From the NCBI GenBank assembly GCA_002633005.1, contig NMRA01000634.1:124001-188000 (forward strand): 64,000 nt of DNA, given 5' to 3'. The notes beneath the pieces are model-generated. The model was not told the origin of the DNA, did not search any database, and saw only the letters and a list, made by a program, of their open reading frames with translations. Of the stretch, positions 13,301-52,300 are shown piece by piece. A program made the translations under genes and the position numbers. Each line of letters begins with the position of its first letter. The first letter of the stretch is position 1. The DNA is from Phoronis australis. Lineage: Eukaryota; Animalia; Phoronida.

Positions 13301-16300
13301 AAAAACTCAGCTACATCAATAAGTTAATTGAGCTACGGATGAGAAATAACGTGTGATATACTGCCGTCAGCGTGTCAGTGACCTGTCCGATGATCTTGAT
13401 AGCTCGAGAAAAATTTGCTAAGAACTTCAGGTGTGTGTTTTGTTTAGCTAGAGACTGGAAATCTAAACTGCTCAATACCACCCTCGGGATCAAGGCATAT
13501 TTTTATAACCGTCATTTCATGGAAAAGGACTTAGGAGCTGAATAGTAGTACTGTACAACACCCTTGCACGTAAGTCGGTTGCTTATAAGAGAAAATCTGA
13601 ATACGTCTGATTAAAAATTGCGAAGTCGAGAACATAATTTTAATGGACTTACGTTCTTTTAGAAGACCAGATTGATCGATTTTCACATCAATATTTCATC
13701 TAGGCGAATGATATCCTTCATTATCTAAATGGTAGTTGCTACACACAACACCTATTCGATAAAACCAATAAAGGCTCATAACATTATTCTCAGGATGAAA
13801 AAGAAATGAAGTCGGAGTAGTGTTCTCTTACGCTGGTCATTCGAGGAGCACTAGAATTGAATTAATATATCTTCGCGTCGGTAGTTCATATGCATGAATT
13901 GTCTGACATATATTAGGAAAAGAATGCCTGACAACGATTTTTGGACGACTCCTAGTATCTTTTTGCATACTTGGCTGTGTGCAATAAATCCTCTGCATGA
14001 CATTTGTTGAATTTGGAAAATGGATTTTTATGAAAGTAAAAGCGGATGACTAGGTTTTTTTCTCTGTACCTTTAGCATTTGTTTCCAACTAGTGGCCATT
14101 TTTATTTTTGGCTTCCGCCCGTCCGTCGGCAAAATCAATGGCAAAGTCTATTAAGAAAGTTGTTATATGAGTTCCTACCAAAAACGCATGACTGATATTG
14201 GTTTTTGGGACGGCTTTAACTTCTGTTGAACCCCATAGTGGCAAGTTTGCTGTCTTCGCGTTTGCAGCTGTTTCGCCATAACCCCCTGAAGGGTTAGCCC
14301 AGGAACCTCTCTTGTGAGTCCATAGAAATATGGGGCTTGTTGGACAGGAGAGACCTAAGGGACGCGTTGAAGGAGATAAGCCTAGAACGGAGAGAGTGCA
14401 ATCGGTGAAACGCCTGTCCGACGAGCACGCGCCGGACAATGATGGAAGTGATTAACAAAAAGTGGGCGAAAGAAGGTGTGCGGCCAGGGCGCAGGGCTCA
14501 ATGCAGGTGGTGGTCATTCCCACCGATCTGGAGAAAAAGGAAGTAGAGAGGGAACGAGGGAGGGAACTGGTGGCCGATTGGATGGACCTGGGGCTGAGGA
14601 GAAGGCTACCGCCAGAAATGCCCAAGGACGAAATGGTCACCGGGGAAGGCCGGAAGCCGTTACAGCAGTTGGAGAGGGTTGCACACGAAGTTGTCCAACC
14701 AACGAACGTAGGAACTGCCAAGGATGAAAACACGGGGCGACATGTAGAAAGTGATTGCCACTATAAGGGGTTATAATAAAATCCGAAAAAGACGATGGAG
14801 AATGCAGAGAAAATGAGTTAGCAGCACGAGTAGTTGAAGAAGGGTGCACTCAAACACGAGTATGGGGTGAAAAGTGGAAAAATTAGGACCAAAAACGTAA
14901 AAATGAAGAGAAAATGTAGAGTACAAACGGAGGTCTTGTAGACGACGAGTTAGGTGATTGAATGAACTAGACCACGTTAAACTGAACAAAGGGAATACGA
15001 GTGACCAATCAGGTGTCGAGTAGGGAAACGTATGAATACAAAAGTAGACCCTTGAAGCTATAAATAGAGATGAGTAATGCAAAATAAACCCTAAGGGTTG
15101 ACATAAAAATAAAGTGCTACATGGCAAAATAGTGAAGATAATATGCATTTAGCAGCTTAAATTAAATGTAATAACGTTAAGTGGATCGATAATTTTCCAG
15201 AAATTCCGTCTACGACAATTTTTTCATGTGGGCACCACATTCTTACATGTAATTGTACATTAAGACAAGCGATATAGTCGACTCTAAATTGTTACATTCT
15301 GACTATCTTGAGGTTTAGTATTAAAATTTGATAATTAGTGTTAATAAGATCATTTTTCTCAGCTAAGCATTGCTTATCTCAATCAAGTTCTCATTTGTTT
15401 TACTTACTAAAGAAAGAGAAGTAACATAAGAGAATGAACCAAATTTAGCTCTGTCAAAATGTAACATTAAGACACCAAGAATTTAAGGAAGAAATGAAAA
15501 ATATGATGACTGGCAAAAATACAAACATTCCGTTCAAAGCGCAGTTGTGTTTATTTTGGGGGCCAAAATTGTAAAAAATCTAATCAATGATCAAATTCTA
15601 AATCCCGCCATATTGCGCGAACTTCAGTGTTTTGACCATACACATACCGAACAAGAGAATCAGTTTGCTGTGATGACTCCAGTTTCTTTTCTTGTGTTAC
15701 AGCTCATGGAGTTACCAAGAAAGTTGTTTGTTACCCAAACCAACTGTCACTAAAATGTCCTATTGGCAAAGTTCTTCGTATACACAAGGCAAATTATGGA
15801 CGTACGTCATCTAACGTACCAAACTGCGGAGTAAATGTAAGTATAAGAGGCAATACAAAAATGAGGCTTTCAGATTCAAAACGATAAGACATAATAAGAG
15901 CCTCTCACCTCATTCATGACTAACCAATTATCACGCTATCAACAATGGTTCAAAAGTCAAGACAAAATGCTACATCCTTGCTTAATTATTCCTACACTTC
16001 AAATTCTGTAATTTGCGGTTAAATTTCAACAGTGCTTTGAATTAAAATGTTTTTTGAAAACTGGCATATTCAAATGTGCGCATACTTGCTGTTTTATGAG
16101 GATTATAATAATTCAGGGCAATGGTGGTAGTATCGACGGACCTAAATTACTTTTAGAGGAGCAATTTTTCCAGGAATCACATCGACAGTGCACCATCGAA
16201 CACATAAGCACGTGTTCAGTTTGACTTTGATGTCATAAAACACGATATCCTGTTGGCTGAGAACTGAGAACTTCAATACACCCCACACGCACACACACAC

Positions 16301-19300
16301 AACACTGTTCCGCAGCCGCCGTTGAACCAAAAAATGATCTTTCGAAATAGTGAAAGCCATTATGAATGAACGAGAAAACTTTATGGGTTACAATATAATT
16401 GTTTACGCAACGTCTGACTTAGCCCACGTGGGACTAACTATGTTCACCTTGCATTTAATTTTCTTCACCAAAGACGCACAGAAATACGAAGTCCAACAAC
16501 GATTTCAAGAATTCGAAGATTACAGTTTCCCCAAACCTTTTTACCACTCTGAAGATTTTCTGTAGCCTGCTTACGACAGTCGCCCTAGAAGAATACTCAT
16601 TGCCTTTTTCATGCTTGCCCAAAATATGAATATCCCTCCTATTAACAGGAAATCCGATTTACACAGTGTCAGGACTCGACAAATCTTCGACACTGCAATT
16701 TTAAAACAGTGATATCGATCAAAAACGCGAAACCAGAATTACTGGCAATGTTTCACTCATGAGGGTCAGCCTGCTCAGAGAGCGACAGCTTCCCTTCCCC
16801 AGTTGCCCGCTGTCGCTCATGACAAAGGCTTCCGAACCATAGCTCTATAGTGAGCCAGCCAACCGCACAAAGTTTAACATTATAAGAATAGATAGCCGTT
16901 GCACAGTAAGAAATCAAACTAAGTTTAAAAAATAATGTTCTAATTATTATGAAAGTCAATGCAGGCACAATAGAGACGGGTATACCAAATCAGATAAAAG
17001 ATAATTTTTCCCAGTGACTTTCCTGAACGGCTGGCCCTAAAAAGCACGAATCCAAGCTTTTCGATATTTTGCGAGATAAGAAAGAAGCAAGGTGAGTGTC
17101 CGGACGGCTCACTATTATTACCATTTTCACACTTTTAGTGTACAAAATATACATTTTCCCTCCCCCTCACCCTCAAGTACCGAAACGTTGATGTTTTTAT
17201 TAATCCGATCGGTGATCTCTCAGTAGCACAAAAGCGGAACGGACGATATCGAAGTTTTCTCCACGCCAGCCCATCTTTAATTCCTTCTAATTCCTGAGGA
17301 TACACCCAGGGGATAATGTACATGGTTGGATCGTATAAAGTTCCCTAATTCCATAGAGAATGTACGCCAAACCGTAACAAATTCAAATATTTAACAATAA
17401 GCAATCATACACTGACAATGTTATGTATTGATTCTATTGGTTTTAATTTGATGTCGAGAGAATAAGAAGTTTTTGAGTGACGGACGGGTTATACTAGATA
17501 CTGTAAGTACCATAGCCGAAACTACTAAACGGCTGTAATATATCCTAGATCACGATGTGTCATGGAAATGGCGTCACGTAACTTAGTAACGAAGACTGAA
17601 CCTCGTAATAGAGGCACAGATTGGACCCCTCTTCACCACATTTCTCAGTGTCTTTTAATTCCACTGTAGGGGTAAGGCAACACGTTGTCCATCTTATTGT
17701 TCAAATGACCTGGTGATAGTTCGTAACAAATGCACAGCGTTGAAGAGACACATATCAGACCAGTTAACTCACGTGATATTCCAAATAAGGGGTAAATGCA
17801 GTCAGAAACTGGACTGTACTATCGGCTTGCAACAAGCCGTCTGCACGCTGAAGGCTAGAAGGAAGATAAGGAGGTTTTGCAATCCTACCACTTTTTAACA
17901 TTACAATTTGATTGAGTCAACAGCGTGAAAGTTCCAGATAATTTCTAGATCACCCATTGATTTATTTCAATGAAACTTGACACAATGCGCGCGGGCACTA
18001 ATTTAGTTTTGGTAGGATTTAACCCCTGGAACTATCTCTAATGGCTATTTTGTCCGACTGTCCTGTTGTTTCCATATCTCAAAAGCTTCTGGTCATGTTT
18101 TAATGATGAAATTTGGAACGCTAATTTGTTACAAGCCACCTTTCCAGTGTTTTTAGGAACAGCATTTCCGGATGATATCTAGAGAACTGATTGAGAGATT
18201 ACAAGGAAAATTAACGTATGAATACGTGATGACATTGCGTCGGCACAAGTTATTTTTGGGGAAATTTGATAACTGAAGCAGTTTGGTCTTCAAAAGAGGA
18301 TTTTTAGTATTTCGGAGGAAAAGCGTTTCAAGATATCTTAGTGAATGAATTGTCAGTTTCAAGTATGTGACGGCAATGGGCAGATACCAGTCGATTTTCG
18401 GGCGGATTTGACTACTGCAGATAATACTTTCAGCACATTCCAACAACTATTAAGCTCGTTTTTTCGCTTTGTATCGATCTGCCAAACCTCATGATTGTTG
18501 TTTTTGACTAGACCTGCAAATATTGGATACATAGTGTTATGTCCTTCTGCAGCATTTCTTTGTTAAAAATCTTAAAAACTGTACCCATTTAAACTTTTTG
18601 ATTTAATGTTAGTTTTAAAAGGTCAGGTACCAACACTTTGTGTCAGTTCTGGCTCTTGTAGCTACCTCTTATAGTCCAATTGTTGTTATGCACCTTGTAA
18701 CTTATGTGATACTAATGAGCACCCGAAGAAACATACCGTTCAAGGTGCAATGTGGACGCCTGTCAATGTTTTGCGTTGAACTTATTCGCAGAAATACATG
18801 GTCGACTGTATCTCTCCGTCCAGTTTCACCATTATTCACAACGCTTGTCACAACAAGACTTCGTGCTCAGTTGAACTATCAGAAACAGTGTTTGGTGATC
18901 CCTGTGTTGGAGAAAACAAATATATGGAAGTGGACTACGACTGTGTTGAAGGTAAGCTAAGCTACATACACTCATGTAGCAACTTCTCATTGCTACTCGT
19001 AAGGTAGCCTGGAACTCTTGTCAAATATCTACAAAGTTATAAAATTTGGTTCTGCAAAAGTATAATTTTTTTAAAATATGTCAGACGATTGACTGTGGGT
19101 TTGTTTAAAAGGTAGCTATGCTTTGAGATTATGCGTAGATGGAGAGTGAATAATCAAATCCAGTAATTAATTTATTATAATTAGACAAATGAAACCTATT
19201 GTTAATTAAGTAATCAACTACAAAGAGTAACTACGCTAGCGCCTTCCTTAAAGATTACTTTAATCAGAACCCAAAGTTGTAAACACCTTCTAAAAATAGA

Positions 19301-31300: not shown

Positions 31301-34300
31301 CAAAAAATGTTTTGCACCAAGAAAATTAACCGCAGACAGATTGTTAAACGGGGAGAGATTATATCAACTTAATATTGCTTCACCTTCTTAATACTTTAGA
31401 ACAAATTCGTATTTTTTGCAGAATTGAACACTTGTACTCTGTTAGACCCGTTGGCTGGTTTCGCTTGGAAAGATGTATCGTGTAACAAGTCCGACGTGGG
31501 ATTTGTATGTAAAAAAGGTGAGGAAATTTGCTGATAATAATCAATACAGCCAAGAAATACTGGCAAGCACATTATGCCGGTTTTTCTTGAATCTATTTTA
31601 AACATGCAATCCGTTGTCAAAGACGCGAACTTTTGATTTAGACCATATACTGCTATAAAACTGGCCTGAATTTCTGCCTTGTATTTGAGAATGAATTTCT
31701 GGTCTTCTCAAAATATGACTCGTCACTTTTCTTTTGAGACCTTGCTGGGCACATAGAATAATATAAGCCAACATGTATTGCCTGGCATCAAACAGTACCG
31801 AAATCAGAGTTTAATAGAAGCCTTGAATCACCTCTCATTTATTCAAGAAACAATTTGAGAACACATTCATACAGGTAAGAGGTCTAAATCAACTTTTACG
31901 GAAGGCAGATTGATATCCCCCTTTAATTCTTACGTAACTTTGGAGAATAAAAGGCTTCAAACCCACATTTAGAACCAGAACCATGACCGTTTGTAAACAA
32001 TCCTTTAAAATCCACACCAGAAGGTCCACTTTTAAATGATGTGTACGTGTACCCCTTGACCAAATGAGGGCATGCTAATTACATTGTAGGTCCACAACTA
32101 ATTTTGCAAGGTCAGGTTTACTCTCGAATCTAGAGTCGGATGTCGATCTCTGACATCTCTGGTTCTCTATTGGTCAATAAAGGATGAGTTCAGCCGCTGT
32201 AGATAAAAACACAATTTTTTTCAACCTTAACTGCCGTAACTTGAATAACAATCACGATGATAAACGCGGATTGTGATCACCGTGCCATCTGCTCACGAAA
32301 CGTAAGCAGACCACTTTCTTGTGGTTTACAGTACAACACTGTGCTTCTATTTTTGTATCTCAGAAAGGTTAGCTGTGCAATCAAAAGCACTGAGCAGCAG
32401 TTGATAGAATATTTGTCTCAGAAGAACAACACCAAATAAGAGAAATAAGAGACAATTTGAAATGGTGAAATACGCAAACAAACCAAGCGTAGTGCGAGAA
32501 AAAATCTGATCAAATGACCTCGTTTTCGAAATGTAAGCAAGACTCAAGAGCTAGTGATTGAGGCTGTTTTCTTCCCTGTCTAGCTTTCTTTACGTACTTG
32601 AATACCACGCTCTTGTGCATTTACTGCGCATGCGCAACTCAAATTCTTGGACTCCTCTATGATGAAAGTATTACTTATGTTCTCACCTTGCGGAGTTTCC
32701 CGTTGATGACCTTGAACGTGTCAACCATCATCTTTAATAACCATTATTGCATATGGTGCTATTTCCAGCTCGCCAGACCTACTCCCCTTTGGACTGCACT
32801 TCTGTTAGTGGAAATAACCAGACTGCGACATGTCCCAAAGGTAACGTACACCTCAAATGATAACTAGTTCGTCATAATGACATTTTCGATCATCTAGTTA
32901 TCTTTTCCTTTTATTGAGGATCGGCAAGAGGTTTGAAGACATTGTGTGTAAAAAATTGAATTGTTTTTACTGCCAATATAGGACCATGCCTCTGTCGCTT
33001 AACTCGACAAATGTTCGTTTTGTTCCCAATGGACGAATTTTTACGTTACATGTTTGCTAAAATAGACCTTCGTGCCACTGAGCAATCAGAAAATTTTGCA
33101 TACATCTATAACATGCGTCATACATTGAAAATTCGTGCTGTTATTTGTTAAAAAAACTTGATTGTACACACTGCCCCGTGCGCCTCATACAATACAAGTT
33201 GATGCAAATTCTTAATGATTAGAGTCATACCGCGAATCCAACACTATGATATCGGTTTTACATCTTACGACTCCTAAGACACTCGATTCTTTTGCGATGT
33301 AGGATCGGAGGTAGCAGAGACGTTAAAAAGATGGAGTAACTGAACATCTTCTGGCGTGTCAAAACAATGAGGGGAAGATCGTGCACAAATCGTCCGCGTA
33401 CCTACCACGTAAACCAATTTCTGAACATTTTCCGACAATCGCCGGCCGATCTTTTAAGTACCGGGCGACATTGTTTAAAATCAATGTCGCCCGGTACTCT
33501 GCTGGCGTCCAGCGATTGAGAAATCGTCCGAGCATCGGAATACTTTCAATTCTTCTCTGTTGCACCGATTAGTTATTTTTGACTCTGATGCCCACCACAC
33601 GCTCCTAGTCACCCAACTTTCGGCCAATACGTCCATTTTCACTCAGGCAGTCATCAGAGCTTGGTTGGAAGCTTTATGTAACTAGGTCTATGTCATAGGT
33701 TCACCGCTGCTCAACTGATCCGATAAAAATCTCCCCATAGACACTGGGAAAGATCGGTGATAGTCCCCTTCGGCATAAGTCTTTTAATTCGCACTTACGC
33801 GTCTCTCACAATAGGGCGCTGACGTCAAATATCACCAATTGCTGATTCGATGAAAAATCACCCAATCGTGCTAAGCATCGGGAATAACGATATAGAACCC
33901 AATCAGCAGTACGAACCGAGCATCGCCCGGTATGCGACCAAGGCATCGTAATTCACGCAATAACAACTAGACCTCTCGTGATTCATTTCTTATTGATAAG
34001 GCCTCTTCCTAAATTTCAGACTTCCCACAGGGCGTCGCCTGTCGATGTTCGTGTGCTAATGGCCGATGGAAACATTATCGACGCATATGCGACTGCTCTC
34101 TCTGCAGCTCAAACGCCGTTAGTGTGGCGCGCTGTTGCAAGCCACACTCAGGCTATTCACCCGGCCCCGACTACAGAGCCTCTGTTGAGTGCGTAGAAAA
34201 TCGACAAACACCCCTAATTGCGGGACCCAGTGCAACTTGCCCATCAAGTAGGTAGACTTGCCTTTCCAGAAACTTGAACACATAGTCCATTGTGGAAATA

Positions 34301-37300
34301 CAAACCTCTGAAGGAAGTGGCGTATGAATATTGTAGACTTTTTACAAGTTTGCTTCTGTATGAGTATGCTTCTTCCAAACTGTACAAAGTACATCCATTA
34401 ATTTTATACATTGTGCGGTCTGTAGTATCCATAACCTATAATATTTAGTTCAAACTGCTGTTGCGGTGTGCCAGTCACGAATCACGTGAGATTCCTCTCT
34501 CGTTAATGTCAGATGTTATTCCTGCAAAATGGCCTCTTTGAATCGCTTATCTTCTGTCACAGCACACCCTTGGTGTATGGATTGCTTGCTTTAGCTTACC
34601 AAATTTGCATAATGTTGTGTGTGTTGCGTAGACGCGGAAACCTCGCGACAACGCAAGATCAAGCGAGACTGTGAGATATCGACATGTTAACGAAGTTCGT
34701 GTTCACAAAAACTTCTGTCGCGAGATTCTTCTGTTTACGGAACTCAATCCTGGTTACATGCGCTGGAAACGTTTGGTGTTTTGTCTTTTGCCTAGGTTTT
34801 AATAATTCAACGATGTATCATCTTTACGAAATGCCCTTTAATCAAAATTTATCAGTATCAGACGCAATTAAGTTCTCCCGCGCAAAGACCTTTTTTCCTC
34901 CTCCGTCACGATGATGGCTTTTCTAAGAGTTTTGTTTGAAAGAGGTCAAACGCTGTACCTGTGACCTTTAAGTGCATTTGCTACACTTCCAGTTTTCTAA
35001 AATTGGACTACTAAACGTCCAGTTGTCCCTCTGTGCTAGATTGTTTCTGTCATAGTCTCACCGGACACTGATTTTGTGTCAGGAGCACCTATTATACAGA
35101 AAAGTATACCTGTATGATTTTTATGCATTGCATAGGCGGGTTTAAGAGGGGGCCCAGGGCCACGCCAGCTTACGGTCACGACCTTCTATAAAATAAAAGC
35201 ACCCATCTTGGGAACAAGAGTACATTACGTCTTCGAAAATTCTGAGAGGGTCCCCCTTTTTAGAGATCCTATATCCAAGAGTGCACTGCTGCTTATTGTA
35301 CTGTACAGGTTCACTCATATCGGTACCTTAAGAGTCTCCCACGTCTGCTGTCCACACCATCTTAAGGTATAGGAAAAATTGCAAAACAACAGTATACAAT
35401 ATGAAATATATAATAAGGCGCTTTTCGGACCAGTCTGTAATCCAGTCATTTGGTTCATGGCATGCTTGATTCCGTAATTAATTTGACCAAATATGTACTC
35501 TCGGACTCGGTTAAACAATCCAACCAGTTTACATGTACACTCCCTTAAAAGGTTTTGTTATTTTAAACAAATGAAGATGTGTTTGGCATCCCACCATCTA
35601 CCCCATGTTACTTAGAGGAAACATTCATATATGCTTAAGAATAAGGCATTGGCCATGACTATTTGGTAAACCTTTAGCGCTGAGGTAAATGAATGTCGTT
35701 TTTCAGATTTCCCAACAGCTACCGACTGCTCGTGTGGTGATTGCAGTACAGACTTTGAAATCATCAATGACAACACGTGCAAATGTTCTTCTGCCACGAC
35801 TAACTGGGCCGCAGCACAGTGCTGTAGGATCGTGTACATGCCGAGATCAACAGGTTGTTTTAATTGCTAGCTCAAGGTGGCATACCGCGAGGTGTCCCAC
35901 GACAAAATTAAAAAATCAGTCTGGACAGCACAAAGTGTCAGTAGAGTTTCTCAGTGGTAGCGGATTTTTTTTATCAATGTCCCATGCTCCCGAGAGTCAT
36001 GGTAAATTAAAAATATCAACTCGTCTATTAAAAAACTGGAAATTGTGTGCGGAATCGCTGCGGAATTCAAACGATAATGTGTTCGTGAGGCTACTCGTCA
36101 GTTTGACTTGCCATCATAACTAACTGAAAAACACCAAAAAGGTCTCTGCGCTTTGTTCTGGTCCGTCCTGACAAAGGTGAAGTGGACAACTCTGAAGGAC
36201 GTGAGTCTTTCCGAATGATTGGGGAGTAACATCATCTTCCAAAATATCAAGTTCATGTAATCATTACCTTTTCTGTTAACAATTTTCTAAATTAAGATCT
36301 AGAGCTCCACACAATTCAGACAGTCCCGTGCCATGAATTTCCGCCAAACAGCCCCTCCCCATAATGGGCACCGATGGAGAGATTTCCAAATATTGCCCTA
36401 TGGGCGTACTTTCGGACCCACGGTTTGTAGGGTTTTCTGAATTGTGGCAACGAGTGTAAACAAAGAAAAGGCTTTGTGAGAAACAGCACAAAATTCGGCT
36501 TACCTACAAAATAAATGTAACTTCCGTGTAGATATCCGAAAATGCGTCATGGCTTACAGTTGGCAGTTAAACACACGCCTTAAGTCATTTGTGAAGGCGC
36601 GCGGTGTGTCACTATAAATTTCTTCACCTTAGATAATGTTGCGGAGCAGTACACTCCTTAGCTTACTGAACAGTAAGTGTGCGCCCACTATAAACGTACT
36701 AGCTTTAGCATGTATGCACAGTCTAGGCATTCAGGTTGAACATACACCGCGAATCTTCATCGTGCATAACGCCTGATTCTTAAAATTAGATTTAATGCCA
36801 CTCTGCGTTTTAAGTAAGTCGTGAATATACAATTTTTTCGCAGACCTGCTCATTTTAGTAAAGCAGTGGGACAAAATTGAATTGTATTGAATTGTAGTGT
36901 CTGTTGTTCAGATTTTCTTGTCACGTACTTCACCAAGTTCAGTTCTTGTCAATGGCGTAGTGGTGACTTTCAAACCAGTGTAAACTCACGCCGTATTTGC
37001 TTACAGAAAAGAAAACAGCTTCTACTATAATGACTTCGATCATTGTTTTAATGAAATTACAGGTGCGTATCTTGTAGAAAGATACTTGTCAATAGACGGC
37101 ATCGTAATCGACGGACAAGACGATTGGACACCTTTGGGTGTGACGTCAAAGGAGAAGTGTTTGCAAGCTTGTGAAAATCAGGTGATTAAATACCATGACG
37201 ACAAAAATATTCTTTAAATGCTCTCAAGCAAATTAGTTCTAAAACTGCTTGGCGGATTTATTTCATGATGCTAGGACCCAACCTAATTTTGAATCCTAGG

Positions 37301-40300
37301 TTACAATAAAATTTAACAAAAGTAGTGCAAAAAGGGGCCGTTTCACAACCTGCTGTCCTTGTCTTTCGACCAGTTTGCTTCGTTTTAATTACTATTATTC
37401 TCAGAAACCATCACAGCTAACGCTAAAAATTAACTTGAGGGAGTTAATAAATGACGTGAAGTTTACGTTCATAAGATCAGAAAAAAGAACACCTTGTAGC
37501 AGTCTAGTTGTTAAACATTATTTAATAATTTTAGGCCGGGTGTAATTCTGTTGAGTTCAAGTCGTCTGATAGTGCGTGTCGACTGAGTGGATCCGCAATA
37601 AAACACGTCGGCCTTTCAGGGTTGCTGCAACAACAGTCGGGATATACGTACTACGAGAGGCTAGACGGGGAAGGTAAGGATGTGCAAACCATGGTAGGGT
37701 AACATGATCTTAATCCAACCATTTTCTCATTGCTGTCATTTTATTCTATTGCACTATAAGTAAATTCCGACAAACGCAGCCAGGTAACACGCATCGTACA
37801 ATGTAGTTTTAATGCAATTATTTAGTTGCAGTGTCTTGGGTCGACCACAAGGCCACGTTTCTACAAGTCACAGGAACTGTCACCTACATGCGTTCTACGT
37901 GTTTTAATATTTTAACAATTTACGCATATATGCCATTAAACGAAATTCAATATTTGAAAACGGTTATGAAATTGATTTGGTTTCTCTGTGATTTTGTTTA
38001 CCGAGACGTATAATCACCTGATCGTGACACTTGACTGTCAGCGTCAGGCACATTTCTTTGGTCTCCCTTCGTAAAATGTTGAGCTACATTGTAAGTGCTC
38101 CTAACGCATCGCATAATCATCTTTACACTTTCTTTAGCAACCAGTGCTTGTGGGACACAAATGGCGGAATATCGTTATCGAATGAAATAACACTACACGC
38201 TGTGACAAGTAAACTCGTAGGACTTGGGTGTCCAACAATAACGAACAGTCAGTTCTTTTGAGGTCTTCAAATCTCACAGTTTCGTCAAGGGACAGTTTGA
38301 GAACAATTACAAAATAGCAAATGATTTAAATCTGGAGTTTTTTTATGATGGAAGGCGGGTTTGTTATCGCTTCAAGACAAAGAGAACCTTACATTGAGCT
38401 AAACACCAATGGTCGAGTTCAAAATGTAGTCCAAGATCTAATTTTGTTTCTAGAAATATTCACTGCAATAGGACAAAACCTGATTTGGTGGTCTTCGAAT
38501 CATATCACCGGATCAGAAGAGACAATAATTAATAAAGAATTTTAGTAACCACCACCGTGTGGGTGAGCGACCATTTGTTGCTTTTTAACAAAAATGTGGA
38601 AAAGTCTGTCTGAAACCATGGAAAATTTTTATCTTAAGGAAGGAAACGGTGACTCGTTTAGGACACTGAAAAATGGCTGTTCCGCCTGGTCAAATTAATG
38701 TTCTGCCCAGACAGATTAGCGTTCCACCCGGGCAGATTACTAGTCATAGTGGAATAGTAATCAGCCCAGACGGAATACTAATCTGACTGGGCGGAATACC
38801 AATTTATTTTCTCAATGTCTTCACTGAGTCACCGCTTCAAAAACTCATTTTTGAGAATTGCCTTTGCAAAGGTCAGGTCTCGTCAACCTCTATTCGGCAG
38901 TTTGTATTATATCCACTCGGGTACCTTAAATTTTGTTTGTTATTCCTTCTCTCAAGGACCAGATTAATGCATAAAAAGTTTTGCAATGTAAGCAATTTCA
39001 AACTAATTATGATAAAGTAAAATCGCAATAAAACACAAGATCGAGACCGAGTTTGTGGACTGCAATTTTTTTTTTGTAGGAGATATCAAAAATTACTTCC
39101 ACAAGTTTGACGGTGTTTACCTATCTGGTGTAAATGCTACTGATACCATAAGTGACTCCAAGATGACTTTGACTTCATGTATGACTATTTGCTTGGAGGA
39201 CAGATCGTGCAAATCGACAGATTTCGATTTGTCAACTAAAACGTGCTACTTGCGAGATGGAAACAGCTTTGATGGAACTCTGACCGTGTCCAGATTTTAC
39301 TACCACTTTGATCTGATCACAAGCACCCCAGGTGAGACCTGTTGATTTTTAGGAGACAGCGCAGAGCGTGAAGTTGCCTGTGTATAAGTTGAGAGTAACT
39401 GCTATCTTATCAAAAGTACGAGGGCCTGTCGTAAATAAAGGGTAGTGGCACGTTACTGCGAATGTAAGAAAAGCGAATTCCGATGCCAACGATGTAGAAT
39501 TGACTCTCATATTCATATCAAACACCCTTGGTCTCGTCTTATTGAAGGTCTTAAGTCCGGTCGTAACCCGTAGCGTAGACGGTCGTGGCAAGGAGTGTAG
39601 TATATATATATAGGAGAGTTCTCATGCGAGTTCGCTGTTATCGCTACTATTAGCGCCGCCAAGTGGTGAATAAGCAACGGTCAAGTAGGTACCTTAAGAA
39701 CACTGGGGAAGGGCGCATTTTGCAGTGCGATAAATTATTGCAGTGGTTCATCCACGAAAATTCCTGAGGTGTCATTTTGTACGTTTCCTAAGTATCCAGA
39801 AAATAAGGATTATTTGTTATTTCATGATATGATACATTGTAGGAAGACAAGTCGATCGCAGTCTCTGTGCAGGCCGCAGTCGTCTGCAATGTAGGCTACT
39901 GCACAGGCTACGCTCTGCCTTCTGCAGATATTTTGTTATCAGTTACATGTATGGGAACATCAGAATGGAATACAGTGTTGTGATGCGCCTACTGCATAAA
40001 CAATTGTCTACATGGGTAGCAGCCTGGCGTATTCAATAGGGACCACATTCAAAAATGTCGGCTGGACATGAAACGAGCAGTGAGCTGGGGGAACTTTGTA
40101 ATGAAAATTTGGAAAACACCCAGGATGGTACTGGAGCATGATTTCCACTAGTCATTATAAGCAAAAGTCCTTGGGGGTCATGTACAAAACGAGGTGGCCG
40201 AATCTTATCACAACTTCACGCATGGTGTCAATGGACAGGGGAACAACCAACATTTGTCACGATGGGAGGGGTGCAACACTCATGTGACATACCCCAATTG

Positions 40301-43300
40301 GTTTTTACCTATTTAGCACTCCTCCCATGTACCCCCAATGGGAGGGGGTTCACAGGTGCCCATTTGTCGCCCACCTGGTTTGCAATCCGCCCTTGCACCC
40401 CTTTAATTGCTAGCGCCTGCATGGGAGCAAATCCTCCTGAACCAGAAGACTTAGACTTAGAAGAGGGCCAAGGGTGACATGCCTCCCCCCCCCCNGTTCG
40501 AAGGTGCGAATCTCTGACGGACAAAATTCTGGCTAATAGCTGACCTACCCCCCGACCCCGAAATCAAAATCCTCGAACCCCCAGGAGTAATCACCAAAAT
40601 TATGTAGTCCATGGAGGTATGCTTTATTAAGAACTTAAACATAAACATAAACAAAACCATAATGGCTTTTGAAGGGAGCTTCAAGAGAGTGAAAGCAAAC
40701 ACACTTAAATATTAATTAAAAACACATTTTCCTTCTTATTTGATCATACGTGGTTGTTAGTTTACTTATTTTACCCATTTTCAATCACACGGTAATTTTG
40801 TTGCACGTCGAACGTCATTATAATATGAATTTGTCAGTGTTTAAATGGTTCGGACTGCGTTGCTAACTTAGTGTTGCTTATTCACCGCTTGGAGCGCTAG
40901 TGTTCGACCGATAACCAATGCGGCGAATGGCAAGAGTGCGGAGTGAACTCTCCTATTCTATGTATACTCCTTGGTCGTAAGCACATTATTGTAAATATGA
41001 TGCTATGTTAGTATAGCCTTCACGAGCGATGCTGATGACCTTTGATAAACGACCCCGGGCTCACTATATTTGGTGATGTTAGGGTAGCAATTGCAATCTG
41101 TCGTAGGTTGTCGCAGGGGTTGCGCAACAGCACAAGTCATTATTTTTCAGGTGCTACAATAACTTGTTGCAGCACAGTGGGTTTACATACATGAATACAC
41201 GGCATTCACCAAGAACTTCGACTTGGTGTTGTGTCCAATAACCTGCAACTACGACTGTGACTTACCTTATAATGTAGTTCATACAGGGAGTACTAAGTTT
41301 AATTAAACGGGTCCAAGTGTAAGGTTGGTGTGGCTACGTGCTTTGCATGCTATGAGTGACGATATCTCGCAGTCTTGTGTGATCTTTTGTGTCCATAAGG
41401 ACGTCGCGTACATGTATAAGGAAAGAATGTTAAGATAAACGGAAGAGGAAGAGGTTTATATTGCTTCCAAATTTGATGGTTCTCTCTTGCTATAAATCGC
41501 TGCTCTGTGAGGACCATGCGTAGACTACTTTTTGAAGATGTGTTTTTGGTGCTGTGAGAAAGTGGTGTCTTAGAAGATGTGAATGACTTTTGTTTAACCA
41601 TCTTTCCACAGGGAGATATTTCACAGAAATATCTTATAAGATTCGTCATCACCGCCACCATCGTAGCAACTCCCAAATTCCAGCGTCAACTAAGCATTAT
41701 CCCCATAAAGACAGGCTTGAAAAAGTGTGTCCTCGTTTACAACTTTCACACGTGATCGTTATGTTGTTACAGAACATAACAAAATTGATTTTGCGGCGAG
41801 CGCTGCTTCCTGCACTTAATAGAACAAAAAAGACATGGGTGTTGCGTTATGTCATGATTGGATTGAAATTCTTCAAAGAAAAATAAATCAGAAATACTGC
41901 CATTGAAAGTTTACAGTGACCCAAACGTCACATTACAATGGGTTTAGTATGCGGGTCAGAATAAAATCAAACAATGAAAACAGAAAATGTGCCCCTATCA
42001 CTCAAGGCGAAATTAGTGATGCTTATTCCACTTGTCGAAAACCCAATAGCATGGTCCTTGTGACCAGTATTGTTGGAGTAATGGAGTTTTTTCTCAACTT
42101 TATGAAACTGCGCATCAATGCAACATAAAATAGAACAAACGTAGTGGTACTACTTTTCCCTTTCAGATCCCTTCTTCACTTGCGACACCGTGAAAAGCAG
42201 TGCAACTGATGCTAATCAATTCTCTTGCGGACCTATAGGTATATTCTTAAGTTTATTGCGTCATTAAGTATTGTGAGAGTGTTGTTGTACTTTGGTTAAA
42301 ACCGATTAAAATGAACAGAAAAATTCGATATACTATTCTTTTTCTTCATATTCCGGGCCATCGACCATCCCATAGTCTGTAATCTACATAAAATAATTAC
42401 AAAAATAAAACATAGTTCGATAATTACAAAAAAATAGTTTGCTAATCCATGCAACGCATGGGCGGCGTATCGTAGGGGGCTGGGGGGCTATAGCCCTCAC
42501 TTTTTTCAGTGCTGCGCCGCCCATGGTCTATGGGCGGTGCACCACAAGGGGGCTGGGGGGGGCTTGAGCCACCCCACTTTTTCAGTGCTTTGGCTCCAAT
42601 GCAACACATGCAGTTTCAGTCGTGCAGTGGTGTTTGCCTTAGTACAGAGGAACGATACGCAAATCCAGACTGTTCAGCTAACTAAAGGAGTCCAAAATGT
42701 TCAATAATCCTGAATATTTGAAAAGGATATTCTTGGATTATGTTTCGACGCTAACGTTTTGTGTCTCAAAGGAAGATGAGATCTAAATGTGTTTTAACTC
42801 TCATTTCAGCCACCTGGATGGATCACTTTACCTACGTCCAAGCCGCAATGTTGGGGGGTAACGATGATGAATTGCCAAACAGCGACAAAAACTCTTGTCT
42901 GAATCAATGCCACAACTCTGCCAGCTGTAGAACTATCGACTATAACGACAACCTAGGTAATAAACTTCTCAAAAAGTAACACCCCCTTCAGTTTTTGTCC
43001 ATAAATTAGACAGTAAAGATTGTTTTTGAAAAGTTCAAAAATGTACTAATACTATAATTCAAGACACATTCTCATATCAATTTAATACAACAATCCATTT
43101 ATCAATTTCAAAGTGAAGCTTTTGTTGTGACGTGGATCTGAATCAAAAGTCGAAAAATATAGATTCCGAAGGCATTTGGTTCGCACACAGATTCAACGAA
43201 GTGTAAATTTACGAAAACTACAGACTACATATCGTTGGAATAAGCTTGAGTATGCTTCTTGTATGGAGTTCCAACAGCTTGATGCCGGCTGATGGTCAAC

Positions 43301-46300
43301 ACTGATTCCAACTGAGCATGAAAGAATGGAGTCAGTAGACAATAAATCCATCAATTTAGTTTAGGTTATAGTGCATTTGTGTCAGTGTCAGTGTCAGTTT
43401 GCGCGTCAACCATGCCCGTATGGCCGAAAATGACAGACTTCGGGATGTGAGTCAATTCGAATCGGACGCCACGCAAATAAAGATCGTCAACAACTTTGGT
43501 GTATCTGGCAGTACAGTTTAACGCCTCTTTCGCAAGTACCGAGATTCTGGTGCTGTCCCTGACTTTCCACGAAATGGTCGTTCACGCGCTACTGCTCAAA
43601 GCCAAGATAAGCACATACATGTAAGAACTGCCGTCCATCGAAAAACCCCAATGAGATGGTGCAGGTAACGCATTAGCTAGAACCACCATCAGTGGAAGAC
43701 TGTACAGTGTTATCTGATTAGTCTCGTTTTTGCTTGCGGTCCATGGATAGGCGGCAGACTATGTGGAGGCGGCGAGGCGAAAGATTTGCAAACTGTTGCA
43801 TTACGCGCATGACACCATACAAAAGAAGTAGTGTTAAGGTGGGACGTGGAATCTCCTTCAACGAATGATCTCGCTTGTCCATCTACATGTACTACGAAAA
43901 ACCGTAAATGACTAGCGCTACCGCACTCAAGCTTTGGATCTCGTAGCCATACCTTTCGTTCGGGCGCTTGGACAAAATGCTATCCTCTGAGACGACAACG
44001 CATGGCCGCACCGGGCAAGGGCCATAGAACGCCATCTGCAACAACAATGCATATAGCGTCCAGAGGGGCCTGCAACAAGTCCTGAACTGAACCTTACAGA
44101 ACAGCTGTGGGACCAGCTTGGTAGACGAGTTTGTTCTCGTGTCACAAACCATGCCACATCTGACAATCTCCGGCGTCTGTTGGAACAGCAGTGAACAGCA
44201 ATCCCCCAGGACAAGATTCAGCGCTTAATTAAGAGTATGCGTGCGAGATGAATGACTGTGGTGAACGTGGGTGGTGACAGTACACGTTACTGATGAGATT
44301 GACTGGAACCGATCTGCAGTGTTAAGTTACGGCACGCCGCCATTTTGTGACTGTTTAAATTTATCGACAAATTTAATTTATTTTACTGTTTAGGGTCCGA
44401 TTTGGCGGATATTTGGCGCAAAATGCGAGCTGAAATTGTCGTTGGCCACCTGAAATCGAGGCTTACTTGCCACTAAATACGACTTCAGTTTTTCGTTGCT
44501 CTACTCGACAGTGCCGTTCCCACTCTTGAAAAACGGGTCAACTAACAGTCAGTAACAGAACAACAAAAAAAAAACAACCGCGAAAAGCACTCAGCGCCGG
44601 TTTACTTTTGTCGCGTCTGTCGATCTTGTTTGTCCACAGGCGCTCAAAAAATGACACGTTTGAACAGCGCCTCCTACGCAGGCGAGCGAGCGACTCTTTA
44701 GAGGTAGTGAACTTCAGCAAAGTGAGATATGAGCGTCTGTGGTTTCCTCGCTTGCTTATCATGGCAATGGCGATGAAAGAACCTGCGGTGCCCGGTTTAA
44801 GGAGCTGGATTGTAGGGCATCCGGAGACAAAACTAAAGGGAATAGTTGTAGCCGGTGGAAATAATGGCGACTGGAGGAGGGGGAGACAATACAGCAGAGG
44901 GGCGACCGGTAGGTAGTGGTTACCGCCGGTAGACAAAACAGTTGGAATAAGGAGAGAATAGTGGCGGGGCTAAACTGGTAGCGAGCCGAGGGCAAATGGT
45001 ATGTGCCCCCAGTAACTCGTGTTTATCTTCATACGTGCCTGAAAACATAACATATTTGTTTGTCTTTATATTGTCGTATATTGTACAACGCAATAGACTT
45101 TTTGTTATTTAACTCTAGCTAATGATGGTTTACGTTTTCTTAAATTTCATCGACAACGTTACAGTGCGTCAGTGGCGCAGCTGCAATTCTCTACCCCAAT
45201 TGCCAGAAATTCCGAGCGTCACAGCCCCCGCCCCCTCCCTCCTTCCCTCGTCGTCAGCGATGTCACGCAGTCTCAAGCCACCTCTCACCGTCACTGCGGT
45301 CTTTCGGTGGCCTGCACTTGCGGGATGCGGTCTGGAGAGGACCCTCAGCTACGCTGCAGCAGTATGGAGTTGTATCACTGTGAATCATGGAGTGATAGTT
45401 TACGATAAAACGTGCATTGACGAAACTAAATAGTACATTCCAACCTTTAAGCAAATTCAACAATGCAAAATATAATGAATTTAATTGTAGCTTTGGCGGA
45501 AAACCGGGACTCGACGCTATGAAAATCACCAGGTGAAATTTTGCCACCTAGCCAAAATCCAAGGTGGCATTTTTAAAATCCTGCATTCATAAATGCCAGG
45601 TCGCAAAATTTTCCGCTATTTTTACGCGCCAAAACTGATTGTTAGATCATCGAAAAATGTTTAGATTATTCTCTTACCTGCGGTGTAAAATACTCACAAA
45701 TTTCAGGTCACAAAATTGTGTTTTTACATGCAGGTACTGTTACTGTTCTTTACGTTTGCCATTGAAAGGCTCTACAGCCCAAGGCTAGCTGCCATTTGAA
45801 AGTTGAATCAGTGCTCTCTAACAGAAACGCACATTTGAGTAGCTAAGTTTGCAATGTGAAAAGAGAGAAAATACTAGTTGGAAAAGTATCCGCGATTTCT
45901 CTAGGTCCGACCTGCTACGTGACTGTCATCAAAGCCGTTAAAGATCAAAACTTACTATGAGTACAAATTCCCTCCAATTTTTGTTCGCACCCCAATCTTT
46001 GCAACTTAACTCGACTTTTGAAAAACATCCTGTCGAAAAAAATCCGTGAAACGTTGCCCTAGCCGAATGACTTTGTCGGATGCGCGGGAACAGTTCAGTG
46101 CAAAATTCACTACAAAAATGTGGGACGAATGCTGTTTAGGTACTCAAAAATTACACGTAGTTTTCCACGAAACGAAATAATTCCCTATTTCGTGCGGGTT
46201 TCCATCTTTATTTGTAATTAGAGTTTGCTCCTCAATATCTTCCATGTACGGGAAAAATAGGTCAGTGAACGACACCCATGTCACTAGTGTTAACTTTCTT

Positions 46301-49300
46301 TCAGAGGTATAAAACAAAGCCGGGTTTTGTTTTTATCACAATGAGAAAAGACTTTTTTTGAAAACTGAATTTGTTGTGTAAAATGAGAGTGATTTACTTT
46401 ATAGGCTACATGTCAGTTTCAAACCACGTGCCGTTTGTAGTGCGATACGATGGACGCTAGCCTTAACTGTGGGCGCTTATTCGGAAATTCTCAAAAGTTG
46501 AGGGGGAACCTTTAGTAGGGCAATGAGCACTTACATGAAGCACTTCTAAAGTAGGGGGTAAGCGCATGCGCGAGCATAAAATCGATAAAATGAGTGTGTG
46601 CGGTAATAACATATACAAAGACTGTAATAGAACGATGCAAACTCCATCTGGTAGGGCTGGCATTTTGCCTATCATTACCACCTACACTGTACCCTTTTTA
46701 GCCACCCGCTTCAGACGGAACAAGATTCTTTCTATTGGAGACTGAAAAATTTACGGCGTGGTACGTAGAACGATAAAAATAGCGGGGGAGAGGCTGTATA
46801 AAGAGAAAAATAAAAAGTTCACTAATCACTATTTCGCATCGATCCATTTAGTTGTAATAGCTGGCTACGGGCATAGAATATCGGGCCGAGGGAACATCGA
46901 CCGGGGAAACATCCGAACAGGAAAATATCAGTTTTGGGCTACATCGGTCCTGGGGCATATGGTGTCGGGTCTTTTATAACCGCCGGAATGTACTTAGTCC
47001 ATTGTCAAATAAACCACTGGCCTNCAATTTCAAACCACGTGCCGTTTGTAGTGCGATACGATGGACGCTAGCCTGAACTGTGGGCGCTTATTCGGAAATT
47101 CTCAAAAGTTGAGGGGGAACTTTTAGTAGGGCAATGAGCACTTACATGAAGCACTTCTAAAGTAGGGAGTAAGCGCATGCGCGAGCATAAAATCGATAAA
47201 ATGAGTGTTTGCGGTAATAACATATACAAAGACTGCAATTGAACGAAATGTTATTATAATACGAATTTGCGATGCAAACTCCATCTGGTAGGGCTGGCAT
47301 TTTGCCTATCATTACCACCTACACTGTACCCTTTTTAGCCACCCGCTTCAGACGGAACAAGATTCTTTCTATTGGAGACTGAAAAATTTACGGCGTGGTA
47401 CGTAGAAAAGTTCCCTAATCACTATTTCGCATCGATCCATTTAGTTGTAATAGCTGGCTACGGGCATAGAATATCGGGCCGAGGGAACATCGACCGGGGA
47501 AACATCCGAACAGGAAAATATCAGTTTTGGGCTACATCGGTCCTGGGGCATATGGTGTCGGGTCTTTTATAACCGCCGGAATGTACTTAGTCCATTGTCA
47601 AATAAACCACTGGCCTCCAGGTGCTTAACACAGCCAAGCCGGTATACTTTATCATTTAGGACTGTCGCTATTTCTTTGGATGGGCAGTGATACGCCGTAA
47701 AATGTAACAATTTCGTAAAATGTAACAACTCTTACAATTTACATCATTGTTACATTTTACGTTGCTAGGCCTCTCCTAAAATGTAACATTTTATGTAATT
47801 GCTACAATGTACGTCGAATGCACATGCGAGAAATGTACCATTTTACGAAATGGAAGTCATATTCCATGCATTTGCCTGGTATTTGTCACACGGAGGAAAA
47901 CGGTTCACACACTTAACGGCTTCTTTCTCGAATTGTTTGAATAAAATTCTGTCAAATGTGCCAGCTCGAATTTATAGATGTGTCCTTATGTGCTTTCCAC
48001 TGTTTTTTAACATGAACAGTTTCTTAGTACAGTAAAAGGTGTGCCCCGTACACTTTCAACTCCAGTTGAAAGCAGTTTCCAGGACAAGGTAGCAAGTTTT
48101 TTATAGTTAAAGCATTCTTGAAATCCGCTGTTGGTGCTCACAGGTCATATTAGCGGAGTTGCAACGCCGCCATATTGGAAATGGGTCAGAATGTTGCATT
48201 GTGGTTAAGCCGGTAAACAAGTACGTCGGCAAGAGTGGGGGCGAACCGGCCACAGGGAGGTTATACGTGTTGTGTGCCTGGCTGCTATAATACCAGTTAG
48301 CTAGATAAAGAATTTAGTTACTTGCTGTTTCCAAAGGATCAAGATCTGCATTAAGGTGGCACTGAATAGTTAGGCTGCGGCCTCGGCCAATTTGCACTGC
48401 CAAAATATAGAAATTTTGGGGTAGGCCAAGTTTGGGGGCATTTTGTAGGTGGGCATTGCACGTAGGCTCAGTGAATGTGGTTTGTTTGTATTTGTGAACA
48501 TGCTGTGGATAAAAAGGCCACTTTCTTGGCTGTAGCTGCACTCTTCTTCAAGATGGCGGCCCCCGGCTGCAATTGTGCATTGTTGGGTAGCGACCGCGAA
48601 ATTGGCTCTGATTTTAGGTAGCCCTCAAACAAGCAAGAATTGCTAAAAAACTAGTTGGTTGACAGTACTTTTGGACCACATTTTCGGAATCGGTAGGAAA
48701 TTTGCTTTCAGACTAATGTTGGTTTTAGTCGTGCATCGGCAGAGAAGTGGTGTTTTTCAGGTGAAAAGTGCCGATTTTGCATTTTTTTTGCCCTTACTTT
48801 TTTTAGTCTAGCTTGGTTTTCAGTGGGAATGAAATGGTCAAAAATACAAGAAAGAATAAAGTTTCTGTGCTCATCTGGGCTTTTTATGTGAAATAATTGA
48901 AACCATGCCATTCTTTGCATCCTGTTTTTGACAGAGTGAAGAAAAGGTTACAAATCAAGTGATGTGTGTTTTGCTAGGCAAAACCCAGTGAGAACTATTC
49001 TGTGCCTCCTAAACATGGGTCAGACACATCGGCAGAGCTGGTAGCAAAGGCCGACTTAGTCATTCTTTCGTAGCATAAAGTATGCAGCGCTCATTTTGAT
49101 GGCGGCAAGAAAACGTATCTTGGAAACTGCCCAACAATATTTCCCTTGAAAGAAACAGTAACAAATACTCCACGGCGGTTGGCAGTGAAAAAAAAAACTT
49201 GTTTTTGCTTGACCAGAACCAACAACATGAGCAATTTTGAGGATAATGCCTCTGCACAATCACCTGTTCTGGATCGATTCACTCAACGTACGCACACTAA

Positions 49301-52300
49301 CGCGCTAAGATAAAGCATGCAGAATATTATTATTTAGTTTGTACAAAATTGTGGTGCATTGCTATCAAAATTCTTTACGATCATTTTTTAGAAAATTGTG
49401 CTGAAATCCCAGGGCGAAATCTCGCCGACAAATGCGTAGCTGCCGGTCTCGCAATCGTCGATAGGGCTTGAATTCTTGGATAAGAATACAGCTTCGACTC
49501 TCCTCAAGTTTTCCAAATGGCGTCTCTAAGATTTTTAAGTTCTTGTTTAGTCTTCGATTAACTGCAGATTAAGACTAAGTCTACGCTACTAGATTGTAGC
49601 CCGCAACATAAAAAATCTCTGGAGGAACACACCTGTGGTTGTCACGTGACGTTTGTTTTGGAGTTTGTATGCGTGTGTGTGAGAGTAAGAGTTCATTTGC
49701 CACATGTTTTAATATTTAGCTTAGCACTTGCTGGCCTCATCTGCTAAAAAACGTTCGAGAATTGTTTCGGTAAGACCGATATGTCACTCATTGAGTCGCC
49801 GGGTGAGTGGATGCGTGACCGTAGTGTAACAGCTATTTTCCGGAAGATTCGGGGTGTAAGGATGCGAATGTGTTCACTATCAGTGGGCCATTTTGACTTT
49901 AAAAACACCAATTATGATTAGTTAAATAATTTCTCTTAAAAATTATGCAAAAGAAACTTTCGGAAATTAGTGCCAATATTTATTTCTTGCCGATTCTATG
50001 TTACCCGTTTCATGAATAGATAGTTTCCTACTAAATGTCTTCGATGACAGCCGGTACATTATGCAGCGCGCGCTTCTTAGCCGCGTGCTAACACTGGTCG
50101 GGGTTTTTTATTAGTCTTCGATTCACGGTTTTCACGTGTACAAAGAAGTTTGGATTCCTGTTGAGGCCGGAGAAGATCTGTACCGGAAAGAAACAATGCA
50201 ATCCCGCTAACAAGTACGCTTCGTCTGTTTTCAAAGTCCAGACCGGCGTAGTGGGGCACATCCCTCGCAAGAGCAGCAAAACTTTTGCGTTCTTTTTGAA
50301 TCGCGGCGTAAGTTTGAAGTGTATATGGACATAATGGTGAGGCTCGTGGTCTACAAATTCAGGACTGTCGGATCTTTCTATTGATAAATTGGAGACGTTA
50401 GAACTGTAGGTAGGGCCTGAGGCATTTTTCGCTTGTGGTTCATGGGCTGGGTGCTTACTTTAGCGAAGTCTGAAAAGGCGTTGGGGCACTTATTGGGGCA
50501 TGGGCGCATATTAGGGCAAATAGCGTCAGAATTACATAAAGCAGCGTAGTTTAATGCACACAAATCACACGTCGTGCAAACCAATCGACCATTCCATATA
50601 CCCTAATCAATCCCAACAGCCTTTGTGCACCCTAATTTCCGGACATGCGCAATCGTTAAATCGATTCGGTTGCAACTCTGCTATTGTGTATCCGGCATTA
50701 TAGTAAACACACTTGCATTGGTAAGCACAACAAAAACAATGACATCGTGTGTTGGCAAATATTTATCGTATTTCTTCGGGAAAACAACGACAGTCGACCA
50801 TAACAAACATTTTTACGGAGAATTCAATTTCAGAAGCCTATTTGATAGAAAAAACACCCGTTTTAGTCCACTATTGTTTGATATATTTCAGCTAGTGTTT
50901 TATTGCCTTGGAGTCATCGGTAATGCAGTAATAGTCCGGCTCCACACAAAAGAAGCGAGACCAAAGTTTCGGATGGTGACGGGTTCTCTCTACCACCATA
51001 TTAGATGCGAACTTCTCAAAGAGATTATGGTGGAAGGAAATAAAAGCACACATTTATTTGCGGGCAGGTTGAAAGATAATTACCAGTGCAACAGCAAAAA
51101 GTCGTTTTTGAAAAGGGCGATACCATAGTTTAAAACGGTGGCCGCATAGTCCCGTGTTTTAAACATCTTTTTAAAAAGCTGAAAAAATATAATTTTTCCT
51201 ATGATGTCAAACCTGTCTGAAATAGTGGTGGTAGCAACAGATCAAACCGTGACGTGTGTACGTGAAAATGGGAGGTTTAGCCGGGGAAATAGAAAACATT
51301 TTGACACTCTGAAGGGACATGATCATTTTGCTCAAATTGGCTTTCTGTCTATAGTTTAAAGTGGCAACAGTCCGAAAAAAGTTGTCTGTTGGCCTTTTGG
51401 ACTACAAAAACATGCACTTTCTCTTCCATTATTGTTTAAGATGATATATCAATTAAAATTGATGTTTTGTTAATGTTTGTTAGTCCGAAGGACACATAAT
51501 TAAATTCAGAGATTGGATATTCTACAATTAATGGACGTGAAGCCACGTGTCTCATGAGGCCCCATTTTGGGCGGGGGTTGCAGGTCGCTGTCAACAACAC
51601 GCGTGGTTGGAAGCAGATGAGGGAATTTTGTATATTAACCCTTTTGCTACATCGCATAAAAAGCGCACATTAAACATCACTAACTTCGACGTTGGCCGTT
51701 TTTGCTCCATATAAACCATTTTCATTGAAACCTAATTCAAAGCACTCTATTAAATTTCTGTATTCTTCTAAGAATATAGGTGTCCGTTCCACATGAAATT
51801 GTTGCGTGTATTGTCTGCCCGTTACCAGCTTTTCTAACGACCCGCTGACTGCAGCCATAGCTGACTAGTCGCAACTGAGTTCACGAAAAATGTCTGCCTC
51901 CAGAGTTCAACCTAACGCAAGTTTTGAACTGACATATCGTCATGGACTGTTTTCAACAAGAAACAAAAATGATAACATGGTGGGTACCATCACGTATAGA
52001 TGTGAGTCGCAAATAAAAGATTACAGTCTGAATTCAGTTCTTAGTGGCAAACTACAGAAGGATATACCCGGTAGCTATACTTACAAACAATATTGTGCTT
52101 GCCGATAGTTCAGAAATTTTTGAAGTTGGCGCACGTCTTAACAAGATTTAAAATCTCAATCTCCTCGTTTCCAAAAATAGGCCTACTTTGCATCCAGAGC
52201 TGTCAAGAAGTTTCTCTCAATATCCCGCTGAACATTGGTATCCCTTTAAAATCCTTTTGAAATAGCACTGGCTGTCCATTTTTGGAAGCCCGGTGAAAAC

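Follow-up and report, generated by a model that had tools for sequence, protein, structure and literature searches.

The closest described relatives of the element reported here are the vertebrate resistin/RELM (FIZZ) proteins, whose heads sit in trimers that are built by a helical tail (PMC8253364, PMC13647132). A family survey that searched vertebrates alone placed resistin genes only in lobe-finned vertebrates, back to the coelacanth (PMC4467842); its authors, who caution that sensitivity was limited, saw no such gene in jawless, cartilaginous or ray-finned fish. Earlier work had listed Resistin among the late-arising domains (PMC1654190). The isolated head of murine RELM-beta has been purified as a folded monomer and binds anionic lipids, and as a 6-8-mer it permeabilises liposomes, best at pH 5.5 and 25 mM NaCl (PMC13647132). 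A related beta-prism, from the Toxoplasma protein PLP1, also binds membranes (PMC6294395). Here we describe a gene of the phoronid Phoronis australis that appears to place two tandem resistin heads inside a lectin-type protein. The gene lies in a stretch of 64,000 nucleotides (positions 124,001 to 188,000 of contig NMRA01000634.1, assembly GCA_002633005.1), which we will call the window and within which all coordinates are given. A preliminary description of the window, made from its letters alone, had reported the two heads. The observation is confirmed as real: by Pfam score, cysteine pattern and intron position the repeats belong to the resistin head domain family, and they are very probably homologous to the resistin/RELM head.

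On the plus strand we modelled a gene of 18 exons and 915 codons with zero stops, whose reading frame is still open at the end of the window (Table 1). The order of the domains is a predicted signal peptide, two PAN domains, a C-type lectin-like domain that encloses a SUEL domain, resistin heads 1 and 2, two more PAN domains, an unassigned exon of 24 codons, and another two PAN domains. Nearly all of the domain borders are at phase-1 introns. The heads are encoded by exons 9, 10 and 11 (hereafter exons A, B and C; 72, 228 and 147 nucleotides), each of which is flanked by AG and GT and is in phase 1 at both its start and its end. When we re-derived these exons from the letters, they lay exactly where they had been proposed. 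The donor of exon C has a weak score (5.4). Within the 915 amino acids that could be read there is no hydrophobic stretch after the signal peptide; the C-terminus is beyond the window.

Exon C gives the clearest match. Against the Pfam model of Resistin (PF06954, gathering cut-off 25 bits), exon C alone scored 28.1-29.4 bits (E = 3.1e-6 / 1.2e-6) over profile positions 50-88, which is above the cut-off. Its best matches in the PDB were RELM-beta (1rh7, E = 1e-4) and resistin (1rfx, E = 0.0025, and 1rgx, E = 0.0037), and the next match had E = 0.67. The profile scans covered exon pieces. The frame of exon A matched profile positions 28-49 (E = 0.014), and its PDB matches, two in all, were 1rh7 (E = 0.18) and 1rfx (E = 1.1). 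In exon B, it was the first 45 codons that matched, over profile positions 52-87 (E = 0.32). Because the scores of exons A and B are each in the chance range, we count them only as complementary parts of the model whose order is correct. By itself, the N-half of repeat 2 had no match. As a control set, we took the 148 most cysteine-rich of the 204 stop-to-stop frames in the window (at least 4 cysteines and at most 160 amino acids). Just 1 of the 148 matched Pfam Resistin at E ≤ 1, and this was the frame of exon C; the best match of any non-exon control frame to any family had E = 0.0093. AlphaFold models, which were made for half-domains only, reached a predicted local distance difference test score (pLDDT) of 51 for exon B and 62 for exon C (with a two-row alignment), and structure searches with them gave no fold match; models of such low confidence say little about whether the heads adopt the six-stranded jelly roll with five disulfides of the resistin head.

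After splicing in silico, repeat 1 has 10 cysteines with spacings of 11-9-1-1-11-1-2-9-0 and repeat 2 has 9 cysteines with spacings of 15-9-1-2-11-1-11-0. On a recount, these are identical to the spacings in the preliminary description. It had also proposed that the eighth cysteine of repeat 2 is replaced by serine, and indeed, a serine lies opposite Cys 8 of RELM-beta in the PDB alignment. Scored for ten cysteines ending in CC, repeat 1 has 10/10 and repeat 2 has 9/10, and the conserved tryptophan of resistin heads is present in repeat 2. For comparison, the spacing in human resistin is 11-8-1-3-10-1-1-9-0 (by eye from S1 Fig of PMC4467842). The two repeats are identical at only 20/66 aligned columns, which points to an old duplication after which the cysteines were retained. 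Head 1 has a net charge of +5, an isoelectric point of 8.8, one tryptophan, all ten cysteines and one N-glycosylation sequon. Head 2 has a net charge of -4 and nine cysteines, hence an odd one. The last cysteine of the lectin domain is 11 residues before head 1, and 17 residues lie between head 1 and head 2.

Both coding introns of RETN, the gene for resistin, are phase I (PMC4467842) and fall after c.118 and c.196 (PMC10608506). In human RETN, codon 66, which comes straight after C63-P64-R65, starts with base 196 (by eye from S1 Fig of PMC4467842). In the same paper, the mark between exons 2 and 3 of the camel gene is under the same C-P-x motif, with an approximate layout, and a duplicated alligator exon ends, by eye, with C-P-x plus one base (PMC4467842). 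In P. australis, both repeats are cut by a phase-1 intron after C-P-x, which is the RETN position c.196/197. The preliminary description had suggested that the last human RETN intron falls at this site, and both position and phase agree with the published RETN data (PMC4467842, PMC10608506). With evenly placed introns, such a match would have a chance of roughly 1 in 180, a value that splice-site bias would raise. We treat the two repeats as one piece of intron evidence, as they are not independent. Furthermore, the start of exon A is also in phase 1 and lies 9 codons ahead of the first cysteine, and the exon is 72 nucleotides long; the RETN exon starts 11 codons ahead of that cysteine and has 78 nucleotides. 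Exon A looks like the counterpart of the whole middle coding exon of RETN.

To look for transcripts, we mapped three raw-read runs from the same species and one contig run over positions 26200-43200. From 30736 to 39240, the reads of run X1 fell in 8 of the 9 bins that hold exons and in 0 of the 6 bins with intron alone. The first mates of these reads are on the minus strand, as is expected for plus-strand RNA in most stranded libraries. The evidence from X1 amounts to a handful of non-independent reads, and a repeat inflates the count in the bin of exon 8. Splicing of exons 9-11 is weakly supported by these data.

Several results weigh against resistin homology or against the splicing that it relies on. 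The pieces of repeat 1 are below the Pfam cut-off (16.4 and 12.0 bits, with E just 0.014 and 0.32), a PDB sequence search with the first half of exon B found no resistin, and neither repeat has the exact vertebrate pattern, several of the cysteine spacings being different. A single shared intron position may come from parallel gain. In the RNA data, none of the 4 runs has a read on the latter half of exon B, no splice joints for exons 9-11 are listed in the mapping of these runs, and runs X2 and X3 cover just the bins of exons 8-9, where the repeat contributes. In addition, searches with exon pieces, which are too weak to survey the range of the domain, recovered no other invertebrate protein with a resistin domain. 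The low scores of repeat 1 and the shifted spacings could also be accounted for if the repeats were only a distant member of the wider resistin/PCSK9/perforin beta-prism group, or a convergent cysteine pattern, and the intron match were a coincidence. We think that this is very unlikely: Resistin is the top or sole Pfam match for three separate pieces, the repeats have 9-10 cysteines with a terminal CC and the conserved tryptophan in repeat 2, the intron position and phase are shared, and exon A is close in length to its RETN counterpart (72 and 78 nucleotides). Scans of the exon pieces listed no PCSK9 model (PCSK9_C) up to E = 10, although the HMMER filters drop weak matches and pieces alone were scanned. 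The above-cut-off Pfam score and the PDB matches 1rh7, 1rfx and 1rgx support the original assignment to the resistin head. It is also very unlikely that these exons are in decay, or are skipped in most transcripts, so that the main protein would lack the heads. Reads are very few and are absent from the latter half of exon B, the donor of exon C scores 5.4, and symmetric exons can be skipped in frame, but the 915 codons are free of stops, the cysteines are kept in both repeats despite 20/66 identity, and the X1 reads are confined to exon bins.

As to what the heads do, we lean towards the view that they are disulfide-locked surface-binding modules in a predicted extracellular mosaic of PAN, C-type-lectin and SUEL domains, and neither a hormone nor a pore. 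The protein would be exported and would recognise microbial or mucus glycans via its SUEL domain and perhaps its PAN domains. Head 1 might add avidity by gripping anionic surfaces (bacterial lipids or sulfated glycans, for instance), a property known for the isolated head of RELM-beta. Head 2 could be a spacer or a partner face, and its odd cysteine could link chains. The same features might instead describe a targeted killer, whose lectin domains would dock on bacteria and whose head 1, like RELM-beta, would permeabilise the membrane. In favour of this, head 1 carries a positive charge (net +5, isoelectric point 8.8) and has a tryptophan and ten cysteines, a rhamnose-binding-type domain adjoins it, and the head of RELM-beta permeabilises liposomes by itself (PMC13647132). 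We nevertheless doubt this analogy. RELM-beta requires an assembly of 6-8 subunits, with an optimum at pH 5.5 and 25 mM NaCl (PMC13647132), whereas the heads of P. australis are in the middle of a chain of more than 915 amino acids with no R-x-x-R at their flanks (by eye), head 1 carries a sequon for N-glycosylation, and the net charge of head 2 is negative. A bactericidal pore role is possible but unlikely.

By a different analogy, the heads would be an oligomerisation module that binds no ligand: heads of three chains would pack as resistin-like trimers and make the lectin multivalent. Resistin heads are trimeric (PMC8253364) and the V-domain of PCSK9 has pseudo three-fold symmetry (PMC6294395). 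The window contains just two copies and no third C-half, so that the rest of a three-fold unit would have to come from other chains, and the opposite charges of the heads and the odd cysteine would also suit this arrangement. However, the resistin trimer is held together by a coiled-coil tail that is absent here (there are 11 residues before head 1), and recombinant RELM-beta folds as a monomer (PMC13647132). We judge oligomerisation to be an improbable sole function, and we continue with the surface-binding reading.

A non-vertebrate match with a shared intron would make the head older than the vertebrates and a shuffled module. The preliminary description had called the head an ancient module, and this follows from the homology, if the homology is accepted. 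It is likely that the head already existed, with its intron, before the vertebrates and that the two moved as a phase 1-1 module. We infer that the vertebrate hormone arose as a phase 1-1 head module behind a helical tail. A bolder idea, which we think is unlikely, is that resistin began as the membrane-attacking warhead of invertebrate lectins, with sugar-binding domains that would aim the cationic head at bacteria, and that the hormone and the bactericidal RELM proteins are this exon pair freed behind a coiled coil. If true, resistin would have an innate-immune ancestry that reaches back to the divergence from the lineage of this animal, or further. In any case, the placement among lectin domains bears on whether resistin's original job was as a metabolic hormone or in host defence, and one cationic and one acidic natural head provide a direct comparison set beside RELM-beta.

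We also searched for the domain in other organisms. None of the 6 candidates (longer proteins) from a query with exon B was a homologue, nor were any of the 10 from an alignment of the two C-halves, and NCBIfam gave 0/3. Among metagenome and genome contigs, 0/347 and 0/218 stretches were confirmed, and exons C and B had no usable match in the ESM Atlas. A profile search of 1.84 billion representatives, for which the tail of exon C was misplaced in the alignment, returned 3 matches, which we rejected because all were tandem-repeat frames without the cysteine pattern. Vertebrate resistins were also below the threshold of this search, and therefore its blank result is uninformative about the range of the domain. 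In the literature, we found no published description of an invertebrate resistin domain among the matches listed; few subscription journals were covered, and supplements may hold annotations. InterPro may list some invertebrate proteins under the resistin family. If so, the bare presence of the domain in invertebrates is already known at the database level. What this locus adds is a sequence-level resistin match that has the vertebrate intron and is fused to lectin domains. The observed/expected ratio of CpG in the window is 0.90, and vertebrate genomes are strongly depleted in CpG; the value fits the non-vertebrate genome that had been supposed.

Table 1. Modelled exons of the gene with two resistin heads, in window coordinates
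Feature	Coordinates	Strand	Description
Exon 1	7277..7328	+	Predicted signal peptide; most hydrophobic 19-residue window of the 915 amino acids (1.55)
Exon 2	8158..8394	+	PAN domain; PAN_1 E = 6.3e-9
Exon 3	11123..11377	+	PAN domain; PAN_1 E = 1.1e-10
Exons 4-5 (11720-11897, 12446-12549)	11720..12549	+	First part of C-type lectin-like domain; exon 4 matches Lectin_C at E = 0.032, exon 5 has no match; motifs by eye
Exons 6-7 (15703-15836, 18792-18951)	15703..18951	+	SUEL / rhamnose-binding lectin domain; SUEL_Lectin E = 0.0038 and 4.4e-13
Exon 8	31422..31517	+	End of C-type lectin-like domain; weak PDB matches to domain ends of mannose receptor/Ly75, E = 2-8; no Pfam match
Exon 9 (A)	32769..32840	+	N-part of head 1, stops after C-P-x; phase 1-1, AG/GT; Pfam Resistin 28-49
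Exon 10 (B)	34020..34247	+	C-part of head 1, 17-residue linker, and N-part of head 2 up to C-P-x; phase 1-1
Exon 11 (C)	35707..35853	+	C-part of head 2; phase 1-1; Pfam Resistin 50-88, PDB matches
Exons 12-13 (37063-37181, 37535-37673)	37063..37673	+	PAN domain; PAN_1 halves E = 0.024 and 0.037
Exon 14	39080..39331	+	PAN domain; PAN_1 E = 1.4e-8
Exon 15 (candidate)	42167..42238	+	24 codons, two cysteines, AG/GT, phase 1-1, in frame; no Pfam match
Exons 16-17 (42810-42956; candidate 60152-60256)	42810..60256	+	PAN domain halves; exon 16 matches PAN_1 (E = 1.8e-5); exon 17 has the best splice score among the candidates, no Pfam match
Exon 18	63326..63574	+	PAN domain; PAN_1 E = 2.1e-11; gene runs past the window

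The SUEL domain scored 49.8 bits in Pfam and matched rhamnose-binding lectins in the PDB with E = 4e-36. It contains YGR, DPC and KY, which we take to be characteristic motifs of the SUEL domain. With the PAN domains in the same frame, these scores bear out the predicted fusion of the heads to domains of the sugar-recognition type. The complete SUEL block (two exons, 294 nucleotides, phase 1-1) is inserted into the long loop of the C-type lectin-like domain, at the place expected for the Ca2+/sugar motif; if both SUEL exons were skipped, the C-type domain would be continuous and still in frame (window positions 11720-31517). In Ca2+-dependent carbohydrate-recognition domains, the motifs are EPN or QPD plus WND, in the long loop region. 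By eye, the C-type lectin-like domain here has neither EPN nor QPD, as the SUEL insert occupies the motif site, and it has W-K-D for WND. Exon 15 has two cysteines that are 11 residues apart and is the same length as exon A (72 nucleotides). We considered whether it might be a lone third N-half; it does not align to exon A and has no Pfam match, and we left it unassigned.

The introns contain several repeats and elements. Intron 7 holds a Gypsy-type long terminal repeat (LTR) retrotransposon on the minus strand (19078-24414), whose LTRs are identical at 338/361 positions and whose gag/pol frames are interrupted. The same intron has an open frame of 146 codons (26113-26553) with diverged RNA reads to a depth of up to about 40, and this is likely a transcribed repeat or a fragment of an element. 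At 29400-30560 there is an element with long inverted ends and many reads from other copies, which resembles a miniature inverted-repeat transposable element (MITE) or a DNA transposon. Farther downstream, a candidate 17-kb intron (42957-60151) splits one PAN domain, and exons may have been missed there. Inside it are a tandem duplication near 46400-47620, with N at the seam, and inverted repeat copies.

How does this protein compare with known systems? The C-terminal modules of PCSK9 are structurally related to resistin and have 6 cysteines each, as compared with 9-10 per module here. Like the V-domain of PCSK9 and the APC-beta domain of Toxoplasma PLP1, the P. australis protein has tandem disulfide-rich beta modules within a larger protein, but in those systems three modules form one prism and here there are two (PMC6294395). 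The six frames of the window contain two C-halves and no third; the gene continues beyond the window, where a distant third copy may lie. The protein also resembles multi-PAN lectins in its PAN arrays, with 28% identity to multi-PAN proteins of bivalves. A search with a PAN alignment returned 3 of 2931 candidates, which were generic multi-PAN proteins, and PF06954 was present in 0/3. With mosaic lectins of the SUEL and mannose-receptor types it shares a SUEL domain and a C-type lectin-like domain. In contrast to invertebrate multi-PAN/SUEL lectins, its SUEL domain is nested in the loop of the C-type lectin-like domain.

The likeness to resistin/RELM (FIZZ) proteins lies in the ten-cysteine head, with C-P after the second cysteine, C-x-C pairs and a terminal CC; in the phase-1 intron after C-P-x; and, for repeat 1, in a cationic head. 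The differences are that two tandem heads are part of a mosaic protein, that the spacings are off by 1-4 residues, that Cys 8 is missing from repeat 2, whose net charge is negative, and that the host is not a vertebrate. Furthermore, resistin/RELM hormones stand alone, at about 110 amino acids and three coding exons (PMC4467842), whereas this protein has more than 915 amino acids and its gene at least 18 exons, and it has no helical coiled-coil tail and no tail cysteine. With no helical tail and not standing alone, the P. australis protein is not a member of the resistin/RELM hormone family; what the two share is the head.

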